Assembly (NCBI RefSeq): GCF_001677475.2
Contig: NZ_CP015229.1
Direction: 5' to 3' (one strand)
Origin: Escherichia coli
GTDB lineage: Bacteria; Pseudomonadota; Gammaproteobacteria; Enterobacterales; Enterobacteriaceae
DNA length: 64,000 bases
Within the stretch, counting starts at the first letter, position 1; every line of letters starts with the position of its first letter. This document shows positions 35,281-48,854 of this stretch, one piece after another. The position numbers and the translations under genes were made by a program. The notes below the pieces were generated by a model. It was given only the letters and a program-made list of their open reading frames with translations, was not told where the DNA came from and did no database searches.

Positions 35281-36165
35281 CTATTGCTGGTCCGATTCTG
35301 CCAGGTCATCTTGGTCCTGGCCCAGGAGCGATAATTCCAACAATGCGTATCGGTGCTCAACAAAGTTATGAACGTTGTTGGCAACCGCCAGTTTGAACAG
35401 TGCCGTGGCGCTGTCCAAATCCCCCAGACTTAGGTAGTACTTACCTAAATAGAAGTTGGTTTCACTGAGATGCTCAGCGAGCGAGGTGTTATCCGTTGCG
35501 TCCGCCTTGAGCCTTTCCATTAACGTTTGTTCGCTAATGTTGCCCAGGTAGAACTCGACAATGTTCCATCCCCACTGTTCCTTATCCGATTTTTCGAAGT
35601 GCTGTTTCAACACTTCTTTAGCCTGCTTCTCATCGAGCTTCTGCTCGGCGAGATAAAGCCACAGACTACGGAAAGGATCATTGGGATCGTCTTGATAAAA
35701 CGCCAGCAGATCATCTTGCGCTAACTTGTCACGACCGCCGTAATATAATGCGATCCCGCGATTCAAGTGCGCGTAGTTGTAAGTTGGATCAAGCTCAAGT
35801 ACAGAATCAAACGCTTCATAGGCAGCATCAAAATTGCCTGCCTGCGTTAAATATATGCCTAAGTAATTGAATACTTCAGGCATATCCGGTCGGATTGCCA
35901 GCGCTTGCGAAAAATCGTTACGCGCTAATGCCCTCAGACCGAGACTATCATACAACACTCCGCGCTCATATAAAAGCTGTGCGCGTTCGTCATCGGTTAA
36001 AGCCCGACTGGCAAGGATTTGTTCCATACGTGCCAGAATCACTTCCTGCTGTAAAGTCGGTTGCAATGGTACCGCGAGGACTTCACTTTTACGCCAGGAA
36101 GTATTACTGCATCCTGCAAGCGTAAGTGCTGTCGCAACGAAACACCAGCGCAAAAAAGGCTTCAT
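35281..36165 (-). CDS. nlpI: TPR-repeat lipoprotein NlpI, 294 aa
   Basis: [21 protein letters not shown] lipoprotein signal; TPR repeats. Confidence 0.93.
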
Positions 36166-36273
36166 TTCCCACTCCCGAAGACCACGGTTGAATGAACGTC
36201 CTGTTCCCGGTTGCTAACAAGGCGTCCTGCCCGGTTAAAAGCCCCCCGCCGCAGCGGAGGGCAAATGGCAACC

Positions 36274-38409
36274 TTACTCGCCCTGTTCAGCAGCCGGAGC
36301 TTCCGGTGCTGCAGCAGGTTGAGACTGCTCAGTCGCTTCTTTAATGCTCAGACGGATACGGCCCTGGCGATCAACTTCCAGAACTTTCACCGGTACTTCC
36401 TGACCCATCTGCAGGTAATCGGTCACTTTCTCAACGCGTTTGTCAGCGATCTGAGAGATGTGTACCAGACCTTCTTTACCGCCGCCGATGGCAACAAATG
36501 CGCCAAAGTCAACTATACGGGTCACTTTACCATTGTAGACGCGGCCCACTTCGATTTCTGCAGTGATCTCTTCGATACGACGAATAGCATGTTTCGCTTT
36601 CTCGCCGTCGGTCGCTGCGATTTTCACAGTACCGTCATCTTCGATTTCGATGGTGGTGCCAGTTTCTTCGGTCAGAGCACGGATAACAGAACCGCCTTTA
36701 CCGATAACGTCTTTGATCTTGTCCGGGTTGATCTTGATGGTATGGATACGCGGAGCGAACTCAGAGATATCGCCGCGCGGCGCGTTGATCGCCTGTTCCA
36801 TTACGCCCAGGATATGCAGACGCGCACCTTTAGCCTGGTTCAGTGCAACCTGCATGATCTCTTTGGTGATACCTTCAATTTTGATATCCATCTGCAATGC
36901 AGAGATACCGTCGCGGGAACCCGCAACTTTGAAGTCCATATCGCCCAGGTGATCTTCGTCGCCTAAAATGTCAGACAGTACAACGTAGTTGTCGCCTTCT
37001 TTCACCAGACCCATTGCGATACCCGCAACAGCAGCTTTGATCGGCACACCTGCGTCCATCAGCGCCAGAGACGCGCCGCACACGGAAGCCATAGAAGAAG
37101 AACCGTTGGATTCGGTGATTTCAGACACTACACGTACGGTGTACGGGAATTTGTCCATATCCGGCATGACTGCCAGCACGCCGCGCTTCGCCAGACGACC
37201 GTGACCAATTTCACGACGCTTCGGAGAACCGACCATGCCGGTTTCGCCTACGGAGTACGGAGGGAAGTTGTAGTGGAACAGGAAGGTGTCAGTACGTTCG
37301 CCCATCAGTTCATCAAGAACCTGCGCGTCACGAGCAGTACCCAGCGTTGCGGTAACCAGCGCCTGCGTTTCACCACGGGTGAACAGCGCAGAACCGTGAG
37401 TACGCGGCAGCACGCCAGTACGCACATCCAGACCACGGATCATATCTTTTTCACGACCATCGATACGCGGTTCGCCTGCCAGTACGCGGCTACGAACAAC
37501 GTTTTTCTCGATCGCGTGCAGAATTTCACCCAGTTCGTTTTCGTCCAGGGTTTCGTCTTCAGCAAGCAGCGTCGCGATGGTTTCAGATTTGATGACATCA
37601 ACCTGCGCATAACGCTCTTGTTTGTCGGTGATGCGGTAAGCATCACTCAGACGAGCTTCAGCCAGTGCAGCAACGCGCGCGTTCAGCGCTTCGTTTACCG
37701 GCTCCGGCTGCCAGTCCCAACGCGGTTTACCGGCTTCTTTCACCAGTTCATTGATGTTCTGAATAACAACCTGCTGTTGTTCATGACCGAACACTACTGC
37801 GCCCAGCATCTGGTCTTCACTCAGCAGTTCAGCTTCAGATTCAACCATCAGTACAGCGGCTTCAGTACCCGCAACAACCAGATCCAGTTTGCTCTCTTTC
37901 AGCTCGTCCTGAGTCGGGTTCAGTACGTACTGGTCATTGATGTAACCTACGCGGGCAGCACCAATCGGACCATTGAACGGAATACCAGACAGAGACAGTG
38001 CTGCGGAAGCACCAATCATCGCGACGATATCCGGGTTAACTTGCGGGTTAACAGAAACCACGGTGGCGATAACCTGAACTTCGTTGACGAAGCCTTCCGG
38101 GAACAGCGGGCGAATCGGGCGGTCAATCAGACGCGCGATCAGGGTTTCGCCTTCGCTTGGGCGGCCTTCACGACGGAAGAAGCTACCCGGGATACGACCA
38201 GCAGCGTAGGTACGCTCCTGATAGTTAACGGTCAGTGGGAAGAAGTCCTGACCTGGTTTGGCTTTTTTCTGGCCAACAACGGTAACAAATACCGCGGTGT
38301 CATCCATGCTAACCATAACAGCGGCAGTAGCCTGACGAGCCATCATGCCGGTTTCCAGAGTCACGGTGTGTTGGCCGTACTGGAATTTACGAACGATCGG
38401 ATTAAGCAA
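36274..38409 (-). CDS. pnp: Polynucleotide phosphorylase, 711 aa, UUG start
   Basis: ORF track extends to 38496; conserved N-terminus [20 protein letters not shown] begins at the in-frame TTG at 38407-38409; KH and S1 domains at the C-terminus. Confidence 0.92.
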
Positions 38410-38611
38410 TGTAATATCCTTTCTCTTTCTTAGACAGTACCTTACGGCACTGGTGTTAATACCCGATCTTCTGCGCATCCTCGCGACTAATGACAACCCT
38501 AACCCAGCTCTATGTGGGTAAAGCCTCTCATTAGCCGCGCGAACCTCTGCAACGGAAGATCATTCATAGCAACAATACATTAGTTTCCAGTGAATTGCTG
38601 CCGTCAGCTTG

Positions 38612-38635
38612 AAAAAAGGGGCCACTCAGGCCCCC
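38612..38635 (-). terminator. rpsO intrinsic terminator
   Basis: Minus strand: ggggcc-tgagt-ggcccc hairpin followed by tttttt, 20 nt after the rpsO stop. Confidence 0.8.
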
Positions 38636-38655
38636 TTTTCTGAAACTCGCAAGAA

Positions 38656-39021
<366 letters not shown>

Positions 39022-39073
39022 TTAAGCGGCAGTATTCTACTCGTAGCGACCTGTTATCGCAAGACGGTTAACA

Positions 39074-40018
39074 TTACGCCGGGTATTCAACCACCAGGCG
39101 ACGAGGCGCAACGCGGCCTTCATCGTCAATTTCGCCCATACCGATAAATTTGCCGTTCTCACCTTCCGTGACGCGAACCAGTCCTTCCAGCGGCGCACCG
39201 GATGTACGAACCGGGTTACCATTTTTGAAGTAAACAGAAGACGTTAACGGAAGATTCACCACCGGATAGTCCGAAGCTGGACTGTCCATTGGCATCAGTA
39301 ATGGATCAAGTAACTCCGCAGCCGGAATATCCTGCTGTTCAGCTTGTTCGACCAGTTCACGCAGATGTTCCAGGGTCACCATCCGTTCAACTGGATATTT
39401 ACTTACCGCCAGACGACGCAGGTAAATAACATGCGCGCCACAACCGAGTTTTTCACCCAGGTCGTCAATGATAGTGCGGATATAAGTACCTTTTGAGCAG
39501 TGAATTTCCAGCTCCAGCTCATTGCCTTCATGGCGAATAAACAGCAATTCATAAACGGTAATCGGACGCGCTTCACGCGGAACTTCAATGCCCTGACGCG
39601 CGTATTCGTACAGTTTTTTGCCCTGATATTTCAGTGCTGAATACATCGAAGGGATCTGTTCGATATCGCCACGGAAGGTATCCAGCGCCGCCGCCAGTTG
39701 CTCTGCACTAAAGGTTACCGGACGTTCTTCAACGATTTGTCCATCGGCATCGGAAGTATCGGTACGCTGTCCAAGACGCGCAATCACCCGATAGCGTTTG
39801 TCGGAGTCCAGCAGATACTGGGAAAACTTCGTCGCTTCCCCGAGGCAAATCGGCAACATGCCAGTTGCCAGCGGGTCCAGCGCGCCGGTGTGTCCGGCAC
39901 GGTTGGCGTTATATATACGTTTCACTTTTTGCAGCGCATCGTTGCTGGACATACCCTGCGGTTTATCCAGCAACAAAACGCCGTTAATGTCGCGACCGCG
40001 ACGACGAGGACGACTCAT
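39074..40018 (-). CDS. truB: tRNA pseudouridine-55 synthase, 314 aa
   Basis: 314 aa; ATG overlaps the rbfA stop by 1 nt. Confidence 0.95.
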
Positions 40019-40419
40019 TAGTCCTCCTTGCTGTCGTCCGGGTTAACACGACGTTCTTCGTCATGTTTGACCACGCTGGTCACCAGGTTTGACATGCGCA
40101 TCCCTTCAACCAGCGAGTTGTCGTAGAAGAAGGTCAGTTCCGGCACGATACGCAGGCGCATCGCTTTCCCCAGCAGGCTGCGGATGAAACCAGAAGCTTC
40201 CTGCAACGCTTTGATGCCCGCTTTAACCGCGTCTTCATCTTTGTCGTTGAGGAATGTCACATATACTTTGGCATACGCCAGGTCGCGAGACATTTCGACA
40301 CCGGAAACGGTGGTCATCATGCCCAGGCGAGGATCTTTAATTTCACGCTGCAGGATGAGAGCGATCTCTTTTTGCATTTCCTGCGCTACGCGCTGCGGGC
40401 GACCAAATTCTTTCGCCAT
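40018..40419 (-). CDS. rbfA: Ribosome-binding factor A, 133 aa
   Basis: Start at internal ATG ([33 protein letters not shown]) preceded by an aggag SD. Confidence 0.95.
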
Positions 40420-40435
40420 AATAAATTCTCCTGAC

Positions 40436-40461
40436 AAAAAAGGGGCTGTTAGCCCCTTTTT
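40436..40461 (-). terminator. Hairpin and T-run immediately upstream of the rbfA SD (putative partial terminator/attenuator after infB)
   Basis: Minus strand: aggggctaacagcccct followed by ttttt, then gtcaggagaatttatt ATG. Confidence 0.55.
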
Positions 40462-40494
40462 AAAATTAATTTCAGGTGGAAGGGCTGTTCACGT

Positions 40495-40572
40495 TGGCCT
40501 GATAAGACGCGCCAGCGTCGCATCAGGCAATCCATGCCGGATGCGGCGTAAACGCCTTATCCCGCATGGAAC
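40495..40572. repeat. REP/BIME element between infB and rbfA
   Basis: gcctgataagacgcgccagcgtcgcatcaggc and tgccggatgcggcgtaaacgccttatcccgcatgg. Confidence 0.85.
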
Positions 40573-40582
40573 CCTAAAAACC

Positions 40583-43255
40583 TTAAGCGATGGTACGTTG
40601 GATTTCGATGATTTCGAATACTTCGATCACATCGCCAGTGCGGACGTCGTTGTAGTTCTTAACGCCGATACCACATTCCATACCGTTACGGACTTCGTTA
40701 ACGTCATCTTTGAAGCGGCGCAGGGACTCCAGCTCGCCTTCGTAGATAACCACGTTGTCGCGCAGAACGCGGATCGGGTTGTGACGTTTAACCACACCTT
40801 CGGTAACCATACAACCTGCGATGGCACCAAATTTCGGTGATTTGAATACGTCACGAACTTCCGCCAGACCGATAATCTGTTGTTTCAGTTCCGGAGACAG
40901 CATACCGCTCATTGCCGCTTTCACTTCGTCGATCAGGTTATAGATGACGGAGTAGTAACGCAGATCCAGGCTTTCCGCTTCAATCACTTTACGTGCAGAG
41001 GCATCAGCACGTACGTTGAAGCCAACCAGGATGGCGTTGGACGCCGCAGCCAGGGTAGCGTCGGTTTCGGTGATACCACCTACGCCAGAACCGATGATCT
41101 TCACTTTAACTTCGTCAGTAGACAGTTTCAGCAAGGAGTCGGAGATAGCTTCCACAGAACCCTGTACGTCTGCCTTCAGGACGATATTCACTTCGTGAAC
41201 TTCGCCTTCGGTCATGTTGGCGAACATGTTCTCGAGTTTAGATTTCTGCTGACGCGCCAGTTTAACTTCGCGGAATTTACCCTGACGATAGAGTGCAACT
41301 TCACGCGCTTTCTTCTCGTCACGTACAACGGTAACTTCATCACCCGCAGCCGGAACGCCGGACAGGCCGAGGATTTCCACCGGAATGGACGGACCCGCTT
41401 CCAGCACTTCCTGACCCAGTTCGTTACGCATCGCACGAACACGACCGTATTCGAAGCCACACAGAACGATATCGCCCTTGTGCAGAGTACCTTCACGTAC
41501 CAGAACGGTAGCAACCGGACCACGACCTTTATCGAGGAAGGATTCGATAACCGCACCGCTCGCCATGCCTTTACGTACCGCTTTCAGTTCCAGAACTTCC
41601 GCCTGCAGCAGGATAGCGTCCAGCAGCTCATCGATACCAGTACCCGCTTTCGCAGACACATGTACGAACTGGCTTTCACCGCCCCACTCTTCCGGCAGGA
41701 TGCCGTACTGGGAGAGTTCGTTCTTAACGCGATCCGGATCGGCTTCTGGTTTATCGATCTTGTTCACTGCAACGACCACCGGAACCTGCGCCGCTTTCGC
41801 GTGCTGGATTGCTTCGATGGTCTGCGGCATTACGCCGTCGTCGGCAGCAACAACCAGGACTACGATGTCCGTTGCCTGCGCACCACGAGCACGCATTGAA
41901 GTAAACGCGGCGTGCCCCGGGGTGTCCAGGAAGGTGATCATGCCGTTTTCAGTTTCAACGTGGTATGCACCAATGTGCTGGGTAATGCCGCCCGCTTCGC
42001 CAGAGGCCACTTTCGTTGAACGAATGTAGTCCAGCAGAGAGGTTTTACCGTGGTCAACGTGACCCATGATGGTCACAACCGGCGCGCGCGGTTCAGCCGC
42101 TGCCCCCGTGTCACGGTCGCTCATTACCGCTTCTTCCAGCTCGTTTTCACGACGCAGGATAACTTTGTGGCCCATCTCTTCAGCAACCAGCTGTGCGGTT
42201 TCCTGATCGATAACCTGGTTGATGGTTGCCATTGCGCCCAGTTTCATCATCGCTTTGATGACCTGAGAGCCTTTAACAGCCATCTTGTTCGCCAGTTCGC
42301 CAACGGTGATGGTTTCGCCGATCACAACGTCACGGTTAACGGCCTGAGCAGGCTTCTGGAAGCCTTGCTGCAGCGAAGAACCTTTACGTTTTCCGCCTTT
42401 ACCGCCACGTACTGCTGCGCGTGCTTCTTCACGATCAGCTTTTGATTCAGCGTGTTTGTTGCCTTTCTTCGGACGCGCAGCTTTCGCGTTACGACCACGG
42501 CCACGGCCGCCTTCGACTTCACGATCGCTTTCGTCTTCTGCCTGGCGAGCATGTTGAGAAGTAGTGACGTGATAATCGCTGGAATCTTCAGTCGGTTCCG
42601 CGTTATCAGTCCATTTGTTTTCTTCCGCCATACGACGTGCTTCTTCAGCAACGCGACGTGCTTCTTCTTCGAGTTTACGACGCGCTTCTTCTTCGGCTTT
42701 ACGCTTGAGCTCTGCAGCTTCCTGCTCACGGCGGGCTTTTTCAGCCTGGGCGTTTTTAGTCATATCGTCTTGTTGATTGCTCACTTTGTCTTTTTCCGCA
42801 GCTTCACGTTTCGCTTGTTCAGCAGCTTCACGCTTAGCTTGTTCTGCGGCCTCACGTTCAGCTTTTTGTTGCGCCTCGCGTTTAGCCGATTCTTCTGCCT
42901 CACGACGGGCTTGCTCTTCCGCTTCACGCTGCGCTTGCTCTTCCGCTGCAAGGCGTTCAGCCTCTTGCGGATCGCGTTTCACAAAGGTGCGTTTCTTGCG
43001 GACTTCGATTTGTACCGATTTGCTTTTTCCACCGGTACCAGGAATGTTAAGGGTGCTGCGTGTTTTACGTTGCAGCGTCAATTTGTCCGGGCCTGAATTT
43101 TTCTGATTCAGGTGGTCAATCAAAGTCTGTTTCTCTTGTGCGGACACAGAGTCGTCAGCAGACTTCCGGATACCTGCATCAGCAAATTGCTGTACCAGGC
43201 GTTCCACGGAGGTCTGTCGCTCTGCGGCCAGCGTTTTAATCGTTACATCTGTCAT
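40583..43255 (-). CDS. infB: Translation initiation factor IF-2, 890 aa
   Basis: 890 aa; Glu/Ala/Arg/Lys-rich N-terminal region; GTPase G-motifs (GHVDHGKT); in-frame internal GTG (codon 158) and ATG (codon 165). Confidence 0.97.
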
Positions 43256-43279
43256 GCTGTTCCTTCCTGCTACAGTTTA

Positions 43280-44767
<1,488 letters not shown>

Positions 44768-44794
44768 CGCGGGCTTTTCACCTCATCCAGACTA

Positions 44795-45247
44795 TTAAAA
44801 GTGGGGAACCAGGTTCGCCTTCTGGATATTACTCAGCGCGAACACTTCATCTTTACCTTCGACGGTAACTGTGATCATTTCACCGTCTACCGCTTTGATA
44901 ACGCCCTGCCATTTGCGACGGTTTTGTACCGCCATACGGAGAACCAAAGTCACCTCTTCTCCGACAAAACGGGCGTAGTGTTCAGCCGTGAACAGTGGGC
45001 GATCGAGACCCGGTGAGGAGACTTCCAGGTTATAAGCAACGGTGATGGGATCTTCAACATCCAGCACAGCACTTACCTGGTGGCTCACATCAGCACAATC
45101 ATCAACATTGATGCCATCTTCACTATCAATATAGATGCGCAGTGTGGATGTGCGACCGCGAATAAATTCGATGCCAACCAGTTCAAAACCCAGGGCCTCA
45201 ACTGGCGCAGTAATCATCTCTGTTAATTTTTGCTCTAATGTGGACAA
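44795..45247 (-). CDS. rimP: Ribosome maturation factor RimP, about 150 aa
   Basis: Conserved protein begins ...[24 protein letters not shown]; no in-frame ATG, candidate TTG/GTG starts at 45259, 45253 and 45247; I take 45247. Confidence 0.85.
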
Positions 45248-45263
45248 GCCCACCCCCAAGACA

Positions 45264-45284
45264 TAAAAAAAGGGCCTAAAGCCC
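45264..45284 (-). terminator. Hairpin and T-run directly upstream of rimP
   Basis: Minus strand: gggctttaggccc followed by ttttttt. Confidence 0.55.
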
Positions 45285-45305
45285 AGTTATTCTGTAGTCA
45301 GATAA

Positions 45306-45328
45306 CAAAAAACCCCGATAAATCGGGG
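45306..45328 (-). terminator. Intrinsic terminator downstream of metY
   Basis: Minus strand: ccccgatttatcgggg followed by ttttttg. Confidence 0.65.
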
Positions 45329-45453
45329 CTTTATATAACTGAACCCTATAACCGCAACTGCGGTCTGGAGCACTTTCCAGAAGGATTTTTTCAAATCCCA
45401 CTACGAAGGCCGAAGTCTTCACAGTATATTTGAAAAAGGACTCTAAGGGAAAG

Positions 45454-45530
<77 letters not shown>

Positions 45531-45790
45531 CCTGAAACGTGGCAAATTCTACTCGTTTTGGGTAAAAAATGCAAATACTGCTGGGATTTGGTGTACCGAG
45601 ACGGGACGTAAAATCTGTAGGCATTATAGTGATCCATGCCACATTTTGTCAACGTTTATTGCTAATCACGTGAATGAATATCCAGTTCACTTTCATTTGT
45701 TGAATACTTTTGCCTTCTCCTGCTCTCCCTTAAGCGCATTATTTTACAAAAAACACACTAAACTCTTCCTGTCTCCGATAAAAGATGATT

Positions 45791-45826
45791 AAATGAAAAC
45801 TCATTTATTTTGCATAAAAATTCAGT
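45791..45826 (+). promoter_or_regulatory. Tandem ARG-box-like palindromes (ArgR operator) upstream of argG
   Basis: aaatgaaaactcattt (palindromic) and ttgcataaaaattcag, close to the TGAAT(A/T)4ATTCA consensus as I recall it, about 55 bp upstream of the argG ATG. Confidence 0.5.
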
Positions 45827-45862
45827 GAGAGCGGAAATCCAGGCTCATCATCAGTTAATTAA

Positions 45863-47221
<1,359 letters not shown>

Positions 47222-47228
47222 TTCGACA

Positions 47229-48854
47229 TCAACCCTGCCCTTCAGGGGTGGGGTTACCTTGCTTATCCTCTGTAAACTCCTTTCTGAGCATCACATAATC
47301 GAAAACATCATGGTTTGCATCCACAACCCGTGAGTCTCCTTTATAGTGTGCAATCACTTCCTCAAGCGTTTGTGGCTGTTCCGGCTTTGTTACCCCCATC
47401 CACGCATTAATAAGGTAATTATTGTAAGCTGTCGAAAAGATGTTGTTTTCCGTTGTGCGATCCACGCCATCCCCAAGAACGGGGCTATACCAGATAAACA
47501 TCGGGACATGATATGCCTGCTGGCTAGCCTCCCTGCCTCCATGAAAATAGACGTTCTTCTTCGTAGGGTCACGTTCCAGGCCGTGGTCGGCAAAATACAT
47601 GACCGAGGCGCGGCGATCTTTTAATAATTCAAAAACCTGACCTAGCAAACTATCTGTGTAATGAATGGAGTTGTCATAGCAGGCATCCTGATCGTCCTGC
47701 GGTTGAAACACGGCGCTGGATTGCGGATAGGCGCTACAAGCCGGTTCATGGCTTCCATTTAAATGAAGAACAATCAGTTTCTTTTGCTGCATATTTTGCT
47801 GTAACGCTTGCGATAAATGCGGCAACAACAATTCATCAAATCCTCTGACATAGACTGTTTCCATGGCGCGCATGGCGATACTGGTAACTGCTGTACCATT
47901 CTGCCGAAAAGCGGATTGCGAGCTTAGCCAGAAAGTCTGAAATCCTGCCTGATTAGCCATATTAATAATGTTGTCGGGGTAATTATGAATGTCATGGCTC
48001 AAAACGGAATCAGCAGTTAAAGAAAGGGGAACCGACAGCGCAGTGTAAGGTGCACCGCTTATTGCTTGATTAAACAGTTTGATCTGTTTTCTTTGTGCTT
48101 CGACTTGCGGTGTCGTAGAGCGTGTATATCCATACAAAGACATATTGTCGACACGTACAGACTCCCCCACAATCAACACGTAGGTATCAATACCTGTATC
48201 CCTGACTGATAATTGAAAATACGGCACCGTGTTTGCAATTGAGAGTAATCTTTGATGCTCTTTCGCTGCTAAAGCAAAATAATTGAGATTGAAAAACGGA
48301 GTATAGGTAGCAAATCGCGACGCTAGTATATATGGACTGAATGCTTTTTTATTTTTTGCATCTTTATAAGCAAATTGACAAGCAGAAAATAAACTGCCCG
48401 AAATGACAATCAGCAATAATATTCCTGTCACTTTTTTTGTCGGTAAGGAAACATCATATTTTATTATTACTGCCAAAAAAAGAAGGGATAAAAAAGCAAA
48501 AGCACATAGATAAGGGATATACATCCCCAGCATTTTGACAACTTCATCCGGATCACTCTGGAGCACACTAATCGCAAATCCATCATTGAAAGTTGTACCA
48601 AAGGTACACCATGAATAGAGGCTAATACTCATGTCTGCCGCAGTCAGTAACACAAATGGTGCGGCAACAAGCAGGCGAAGCGGAAGGGGTGATATACGTT
48701 TAACAACCAGGATGGTCAGGACGAAGAACAGCAATCGCTGAACCATATGCGCTCCGGAAGAGGCGACTAAGTTCGTAATACCAAAAACAATAACACAAAG
48801 ATACAACAACCAATGAGATTTAAAACTTCTAGCAAATTTGTTGAATACTGTCAT
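47229..48854 (-). CDS. yhbX: Inner-membrane sulfatase-fold protein of the phosphoethanolamine-transferase (EptA-like) family, 541 aa
   Basis: Start at internal ATG (MTVFNKFARSFKSHWLLYL); N-terminal transmembrane segments and C-terminal sulfatase-like domain. Confidence 0.88.
   Translation of the reverse strand: MTVFNKFARSFKSHWLLYLCVIVFGITNLVASSGAHMVQRLLFFVLTILVVKRISPLPLRLLVAAPFVLLTAADMSISLYSWCTFGTTFNDGFAISVLQSDPDEVVKMLGMYIPYLCAFAFLSLLFLAVIIKYDVSLPTKKVTGILLLIVISGSLFSACQFAYKDAKNKKAFSPYILASRFATYTPFFNLNYFALAAKEHQRLLSIANTVPYFQLSVRDTGIDTYVLIVGESVRVDNMSLYGYTRSTTPQVEAQRKQIKLFNQAISGAPYTALSVPLSLTADSVLSHDIHNYPDNIINMANQAGFQTFWLSSQSAFRQNGTAVTSIAMRAMETVYVRGFDELLLPHLSQALQQNMQQKKLIVLHLNGSHEPACSAYPQSSAVFQPQDDQDACYDNSIHYTDSLLGQVFELLKDRRASVMYFADHGLERDPTKKNVYFHGGREASQQAYHVPMFIWYSPVLGDGVDRTTENNIFSTAYNNYLINAWMGVTKPEQPQTLEEVIAHYKGDSRVVDANHDVFDYVMLRKEFTEDKQGNPTPEGQG

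Follow-up and report, generated by a model that had tools for sequence, protein, structure and literature searches.

The hairpin and T-run between infB and rbfA on the minus strand of the Escherichia coli contig NZ_CP015229.1 (the window, to which all coordinates refer, is the whole stretch of 64,000 nucleotides that was analysed) very probably form t3, the internal Rho-independent terminator of the metY-rimP-nusA-infB-rbfA-truB(-rpsO-pnp) unit, acting as a fixed step-down valve. [quoted passage not shown] 2019, PMC6511841); it shares organism, position and role with the element described here, and we see no essential difference between the two. Both t3 and the idea of regulated read-through are already known and in print, and since t3 already has a name and its operon is among the most thoroughly studied in E. 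coli, the discovery value is low. What we add to the published t3 accounts that we have seen is a picture of its conservation, comprising 81 genomes, two stem classes and loop alleles.

The minus-strand operon reads metY-rimP-nusA-infB-rbfA-truB-rpsO-pnp, with metY at 45530-45454. According to the list of open reading frames, the infB (IF2) coding sequence occupies 40583..43255 and ends in a TAA stop at 40585-40583; E. coli matches at 100% are annotated infB. From the same list, rbfA (133 amino acids) spans 40018..40419 with its ATG at 40419. Its product is identical to that of the annotated E. coli rbfA, its homologues match Pfam PF02033, and its coding sequence shares one base with the start of truB. 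The 261 nt around t3 are 100% identical to E. coli FDAARGOS_497, and this full stretch was found in 5,422 of 5,426 complete E. coli genomes, where the annotation is infB followed by rbfA. Rfam families matched in the window are the rimP leader, the REP-derived naRNA4, the S15 leader and SraG. A scan of the window found no promoter-like site in the infB-rbfA spacer.

Positions 40461-40436 of the minus strand read AAAAAGGGGCTAACAGCCCCTTTTTT. An A5 tract (40457..40461) precedes the t3 hairpin (40441..40457), which is built from AGGGGCU (40457-40451), the loop AAC (40450-40448) and AGCCCCU (40447-40441), and is followed by a U6 tract (T6 in the DNA; 40436..40441), the first U of which can join the stem. 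The A5 tract is able to pair with the U-tract, and in the predicted fold the A5 and T6 runs can lengthen the stem to 11 bp. After the T6 run come GTC, the rbfA Shine-Dalgarno sequence AGGAG (40428-40432), a spacer of 8 nt and the rbfA ATG. With 3 nt separating the U-tract from the Shine-Dalgarno sequence, read-through mRNAs would have the hairpin and the U-rich stretch directly before the rbfA ribosome-binding site. The initial annotation, made from the letters and their reading frames, had described this order of hairpin, T-run, Shine-Dalgarno sequence and rbfA ATG on the minus strand, and had placed it past the infB stop and a BIME; the sequence agrees on both counts, with the stop at 40585-40583, a naRNA4 match at 40496-40566 and the end of the U-tract 147 nt past the stop, the REP pair lying in between.

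The t3 hairpin has a folding energy of -14.8 to -15.2 kcal/mol (z -2.65 to -3.44), equalled by one of 200 shuffled sequences, and its core pairs keep probabilities of 1.0 when 221 nt of context, both REP hairpins included, are folded together. It thus has the hallmarks of an intrinsic terminator, namely a stable G+C-rich stem-loop with a U-rich tract directly 3′, and transcript 3′ ends are expected to fall within the U6 tract at 40436-40441, which corresponds to about 3,313,195-3,313,200 on the minus strand of K-12 (NC_000913.3). A standard terminator scan of positions 36000-48000 did not list t3 and listed weaker sites, because extension of the stem through the A and T runs uses up the T tail; when the T-tract was counted from the last G/C of the 3′ arm, t3 was recovered. 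The element is also nearly symmetrical. The plus strand reads A6-stem-T5 and scores 28.1 bits with our t3 model, and in this orientation t3 could also halt antisense transcription from the rbfA side; there is no convergent gene at the site.

Sands et al. are said to have mapped t3 with S1 in 1988. The two RNA 3′-end sets that we searched contain no entry for infB or rbfA. The structure and conservation of t3 are our own observations, and termination and read-through at the site are taken from published northern blots (PMC6511841). Termination, on the detection of which the initial annotation had made its reading depend, is indicated by a 4.8 kb rimP-nusA-infB RNA without rbfA, the end of which was assigned to t3 with the wording 'likely', and a 6.7 kb RNA was assigned to t3 read-through (PMC6511841). 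On the same blots rbfA is the lowest of four mRNAs (PMC6511841). As cited in that paper, an earlier estimate put infB mRNA at about twice rbfA mRNA, and Plumbridge and Springer 1983 is the reference given there for t3 (PMC6511841).

Taken as a valve, t3 would work as follows. RNA polymerase that has passed infB and its REP-containing 3′ UTR would make the GGGGCU/AGCCCC hairpin and then U6. A fraction of the complexes would release at this point and leave rimP-nusA-infB mRNAs with a hairpin-protected 3′ end, and the remaining complexes would read through t3 and transcribe rbfA and truB. By such partial release t3 would act as a fixed step-down valve that holds rbfA-truB mRNA below infB mRNA, and we infer that it mainly sets a constant ratio rather than serving as a switch. 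Against termination at t3, exonucleases could also trim longer RNAs back to the hairpin and so generate a 3′ end stabilised by it.

Conservation of t3 and its REP neighbours

For comparison, one genome per species was sampled, giving 80 Enterobacteriaceae loci with RbfA 85-100% identical, or 81 with the window. All 81 genomes have the hairpin at the position that it occupies in the window, in 58 distinct sequences. The suggestion of the initial annotation that the arrangement is not due to chance is therefore well founded, and conservation in related genomes, which it had put forward as a test, is complete in this sample. Throughout the 58 distinct sequences the five core pairs GGGGC/GCCCC (the loop-closing C-G and four G-C) are invariant, and the loop occurs in 33 variants of 4-6 nt. 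The two pairs next to the core are mostly A-U; G-C takes their place in 14 and 10 distinct sequences, respectively, and pairing is 100% at both. These counts were anchored on the loop-closing pair, by which seven pairs are 100% paired, and this procedure was preferred over a model-fitted alignment. The latter contains 12 double-change cells versus 4.6 in shuffled alignments, a value reached by none of 500 shuffles; its overall covariation score equals that of the shuffles, with the long-stem class lying out of register there. Compensatory changes in t3 are real but probably derive from few events.

The U-tract is more variable, with at least six T among the first eight bases past the stem in 68 of the 81 genomes and an interrupted tract in the other 13. 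These 13 genomes (Atlantibacter, Cedecea, Buttiauxella, Shimwellia and others; loci L034, L041, L053, L054, L070, L072-L074, L076-L078, L080 and L081, at about 1456-1488) carry a longer G6C/GC6 stem with tails such as GTTTTGTC. Interrupted tracts in these genomes, Erwiniaceae and Vibrio include GUUUUGU (Cedecea), GAAUUAUUUGA, GTTTTGTC and GATTTGTC, in each case with the hairpin retained. Judged from the sequences, this combination hints that termination efficiency is tuned, that termination is factor-dependent or that the hairpin has a role beyond termination. Downstream of the stem, the distance to the Shine-Dalgarno sequence is 8-9 nt in 55 genomes and 14-17 nt in 26, GGAG of the rbfA Shine-Dalgarno sequence is conserved in 81 of 81 genomes, and a GTCTGGAGAAT motif is likewise conserved. 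The comparison accordingly separates a G-run/C-run core that is fixed across the family from a U-tract that is tuned between lineages.

Beyond the long-stem class, a side comparison covered Erwiniaceae and Vibrio (loci L082-L085 and L088). The four Erwiniaceae loci have a spacer of 59-71 nt without REP and a GC hairpin 8-15 nt before the Shine-Dalgarno sequence. One of them (Erwinia sp.) keeps a G6C/GC6 stem resembling that of the long-stem class, and in the other three the stem differs (GGGAGGCC/GGCCUCCC) and the U-tract, GAAUUAUUUGA, is poor. In one Vibrio a G6C/GC6 hairpin with CUUUCU is located about 24 nt ahead of the start, and another gammaproteobacterial contig displays a G5C hairpin and a U-tract. 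No comparable hairpin was found in two still more distant contigs, whose RbfA identities are 50-53%; one locus from this distant sampling turned out to be Klebsiella again.

Upstream of t3, the infB 3′ UTR contains a BIME, a REP hairpin pair at 40496..40566 on the minus strand, which matches Rfam naRNA4 with 77.2 bits versus a gathering score of 59.5 and folds into two hairpins. It is separate from the t3 hairpin. The REP-containing fragment matches E. coli genomes at a median of 12 places each, and the 101-nt fragment with the t3 hairpin at a median of one; the REP model match stops at 40496. Being neither multi-copy nor inside that match, the t3 hairpin does not belong to the REP/BIME elements. 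That t3 is a chance hairpin or a by-product of insertion of the adjacent BIME might be argued from the mere 35 nt between it and the REP pair, and Naville and Gautheret placed the region upstream of rbfA among their BIME-based candidate attenuators. Set against this are the single copy of the hairpin versus the multi-copy REP fragment, its persistence while REP types change between genera, and its presence in Erwiniaceae devoid of any REP. We regard such an origin as exceedingly improbable, and these three observations refute it. The rbfA upstream region is thus already listed among the conserved enterobacterial candidates of the BIME-associated attenuators (Naville and Gautheret 2010, Figure 8); compared with these, the t3 hairpin is distinct from the REP pair and older, and its greater age relative to the adjacent REP elements is a gain of the comparative analysis.

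Turnover of the REP type upstream of t3 is seen between genera at one and the same position (40496-40566 of the window; loci L004-L081). E. coli, E. albertii and Pseudocitrobacter have a common spacer, GAACAGCCCTTCCACCTGA, between the REP pair and t3. Most other genera carry a different REP, ending in ...GCGCCACCCGGCA directly ahead of the hairpin, and Erwiniaceae are without REP. From these sequences, REPs seem to have landed repeatedly at the site ahead of the fixed terminator. By the Rfam match, the first REP hairpin of the window starts about 16 nt past the infB stop (40566-40585, minus strand); the predicted fold moves this start a few bases nearer to the stop. Stalling of terminating ribosomes has been reported for REPs that lie no more than about 15 nt from a stop codon.

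Comparison with the rimP leader and the rpsO terminator

As the initial annotation had observed, the same arrangement stands before rimP in the same operon. The rimP leader (t1 and t2; 45265..45365, minus strand; Rfam RF01770, 102 bits) contains the t2 hairpin GGGCTTTAGGCCC at 45284-45272 and T7 at 45271-45265, after which 17 nt including GGGGGTGGG, a G-rich Shine-Dalgarno sequence, lead to the rimP TTG at 45247. The rimP leader (RF01770; Naville and Gautheret 2010) resembles t3 in being a leaky intrinsic terminator of this operon with G-rich and C-rich arms and a U-run, and both shortly precede the ribosome-binding site of a ribosome-maturation gene. The leader, however, consists of two tandem hairpins, the upstream one with a proposed antiterminator, whereas t3 is a single hairpin lacking a conserved alternative structure.

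The window hairpin most similar to t3 is the rpsO terminator, A4-GGGGGCC-TGAG-TGGCCCC-T6 (38612..38640, minus strand), which is located at the end of rpsO and shared with SraG on the other strand. Both display an A-run, a G-run/C-run stem, T6 and a free loop. At the same loci the rpsO terminator has an invariant GGGGCC/GGCCCC core, T6 and 27 loop variants; as it shows the same conservation pattern in the same genomes, the pattern of t3 is that of a genuine terminator. The two differ in that T6 is perfect in 65 of the 65 genomes in which the rpsO terminator was found, whereas the U-tract of t3 is degraded in 13 of 81, and t3, unlike the rpsO terminator, abuts a downstream ribosome-binding site.

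We consider it very unlikely that t3 is a paralogue of the rimP-leader terminator that shares its GGGc...gCCC motif and is recognized by the same sequence-specific factor. The arms of t3, G-rich on the 5′ and C-rich on the 3′ side, and its U stretch do fit the rimP leader as described; the GGGGC/GCCCC core stays the same over the 81 genomes, a G6C/GC6 stem is present in a Vibrio, and the only three G-run-first terminators of the window all lie within the metY-pnp super-operon, a comparison that involves small counts and was chosen after seeing the data. The formula GGGc...gCCC followed by a U stretch, which t3 matches as GGGGC-N5-GCCCC-U6, is nevertheless matched by the rpsO terminator too, so the trait is not diagnostic. 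The RF01770 model yielded no match on 40380-40620 even at E<=10, at which only sub-threshold terminators of unrelated sRNAs were returned. Conversely, a covariance model of t3 (R1), built from 59 distinct t3 sequences and able to find t3 in 81 of 81 sources, gave no match to rimP t2 at E<=10; apart from t3 itself, R1 matched nothing but t3 read in the opposite direction, with 28 bits, and the rpsO terminator, for which the score in the window is 19.7 bits. In addition, the Erwiniaceae stem GGGAGGCC is different. A specific kinship of t2 and t3 was rejected, since t2 is never among the matches of R1. The likeness between t3 and the rimP leader is therefore best described as generic.

A corrected scan of the whole window returned some twenty hairpins that resemble terminators, of which roughly eleven are convincing. 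Three strong terminators are located at most 35 nt upstream of a long co-directional open reading frame, namely t2, t3 and a hairpin at 52210-52187, and a terminator followed by a gene start is therefore not a rare arrangement. This third case, in another gene cluster, weakens the shared architecture, from which the initial annotation had argued, as evidence of shared regulation. The hairpin concerned, AAAACCCCGGGGC-GTGC-TCCGGGGTTTT with a T-run (52187-52210, minus strand), lies 34 nt before the start, at 52152, of an open reading frame of 282 amino acids.

Among the clear minus-strand terminators of the window, only t2 (45265-45284), t3 (40436-40461) and the rpsO terminator (38612-38640), all in the metY-pnp super-operon, have the G-run first, and the others (538, 33169, 45332, 52210 and 57671) are C-run first or mixed; this tally involves small numbers and was drawn up once the data had been seen. 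That t2, t3 and the rpsO terminator, which precede rimP, rbfA-truB and pnp, respectively, constitute one class of deliberately leaky G-run-first terminators with a shared sensitivity to NusA, Csp proteins or both is a distinctly unlikely proposition. If it held true, the level of one factor would gate three ribosome-biogenesis modules along the super-operon, and t3 would be strictly factor-dependent where its U-tract is degraded (Cedecea, Atlantibacter, Erwiniaceae, Vibrio).

Regulated read-through and effects on the transcript

The initial annotation took the repeated arrangement to suggest regulated read-through rather than chance. Regulated read-through in this operon has already been proposed in print, in the form of NusA feedback and antitermination by CspA, CspC and CspE, and the reading is partly supported and not new; the repetition adds little to it, the likeness being generic and neither model matching the element of the other. 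The regulated reading holds that t3 is an attenuator at which NusA raises termination in a feedback loop and CspA-family chaperones melt the hairpin in the cold, and that read-through of t3 and t1/t2 is actively modulated to increase rbfA-truB output when ribosome assembly is limiting. We treat this as a tentative possibility, compatible with the t3 valve as an added layer.

Several published results point in this direction. In summaries of Bae et al. and others, overproduction of CspA, CspC or CspE lowers termination in the metY-rpsO operon and increases the expression of nusA and rbfA; mutants with weaker NusA-mediated termination have elevated operon transcripts, as cited from Bylund 2011 in PMC6511841; and rbfA is cold-induced (PMC6511841). 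The U-tract of t3, moreover, is imperfect in about a sixth of the genomes. Work in Bacillus indicates that terminators with imperfect U-tracts tend to depend on NusA. On the other hand, transcript patterns before and after cold shock were very similar, with no relevant read-through events, and the authors accounted for cold induction with new promoters and stabilised mRNA (Brandi et al. 2019, PMC6511841). Overproduction of CspD did not raise nusA or rbfA, according to a literature summary, and we found no evidence that separates t3 from t1/t2 in this respect. Cold-shock antitermination at the metY-nusA-infB operon is thus contested.

Nor is a conserved antiterminator present in the spacers, since the 5′ arm pairs upstream in 43% of 84 spacers versus 67% for shuffled upstream sequence. 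Two specific candidates were rejected. AGCCCUU (40485-40479), which could pair with the 5′ arm in the nascent RNA, is confined to Escherichia and Pseudocitrobacter and falls below the shuffled expectation. A CCUGA/UCAGG helix, which would tie up some of the Shine-Dalgarno sequence, requires the GTCA of Escherichia, whereas other genera have GTCT. An RNA-only switch at t3 hence appears unlikely from the sequences compared, and with no conserved antiterminator any regulation of t3 would act through protein factors (NusA, Csp), a narrowing that we count among the gains of the comparison.

The retention of the hairpin where the U-tract decays might alternatively mean that t3 acts chiefly after transcription, with the hairpin shielding the 3′ end of infB mRNA from exonucleases and the hairpin and U-tract enhancing or insulating rbfA translation. 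The constrained distance from stem to Shine-Dalgarno sequence (8-9 or 14-17 nt) and the conserved GTCTGGAGAAT motif are in line with such a function, and U-rich and A/U-rich translational enhancers are documented, including that of rnd (Zhang and Deutscher 1992, as cited in PMC7769764). When the hairpin was removed in silico, however, the Shine-Dalgarno sequence became no less accessible, if anything more, and in most genomes the A-tract, GC stem and U6 are canonical, which argues that termination is selected. A chiefly post-transcriptional function is thus rather unlikely, and we retain termination at t3 as the preferred explanation. Because the hairpin is kept despite decay of the U-tract and the distance to the Shine-Dalgarno sequence is constrained, the sequences leave room for a secondary role of t3 in RNA stability or rbfA translation, and we infer that the U-tract influences the latter.

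The closest parallel for such a secondary role is rnd. Its terminator-like hairpin and U8, in the 5′ leader, were reportedly found by Zhang and Deutscher in 1992 to be required for translation. As in t3, the hairpin and U-run of the rnd leader are placed immediately upstream of the Shine-Dalgarno sequence; the rnd element lies in a 5′ leader and reportedly acts on translation, whereas any such role of t3 is putative.

Variants of t3 within E. coli

Two loop alleles of t3 occur within E. coli (window 40446-40450), GGGGC-TAACA-GCCCC and GGGGC-TTATG-GCCCC. The TAACA allele is carried by the window and by K-12; of 5,425 matched genomes, 4,774 are at least 99% identical to it over 101 nt. The TTATG allele is found in E. 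coli E69 (locus L002, 996-1010) and in E. albertii, and is the commonest loop across genera. The alleles differ at three positions within 5 nt, and the flanks are otherwise identical.

One of 5,426 complete genomes, that of E. coli 22AH104, carries an IS4-family element of about 1.29 kb inside the t3 hairpin (NZ_AP043972.1, locus L086 2540-3880, equivalent to window 40442-40456). Its transposase, which matches NF033591 with 340 bits, lies antisense to rbfA. The 6-nt loop CTATGG is present twice as a result of the insertion, and the target corresponds to GGGG-N6-CCCC; IS186 prefers targets of the form GGGG(N6/7)CCCC. In 22AH104 the right end of the element (..CAGGG), together with CTATGG-CCCC-T6, rebuilds a shorter hairpin ahead of rbfA.
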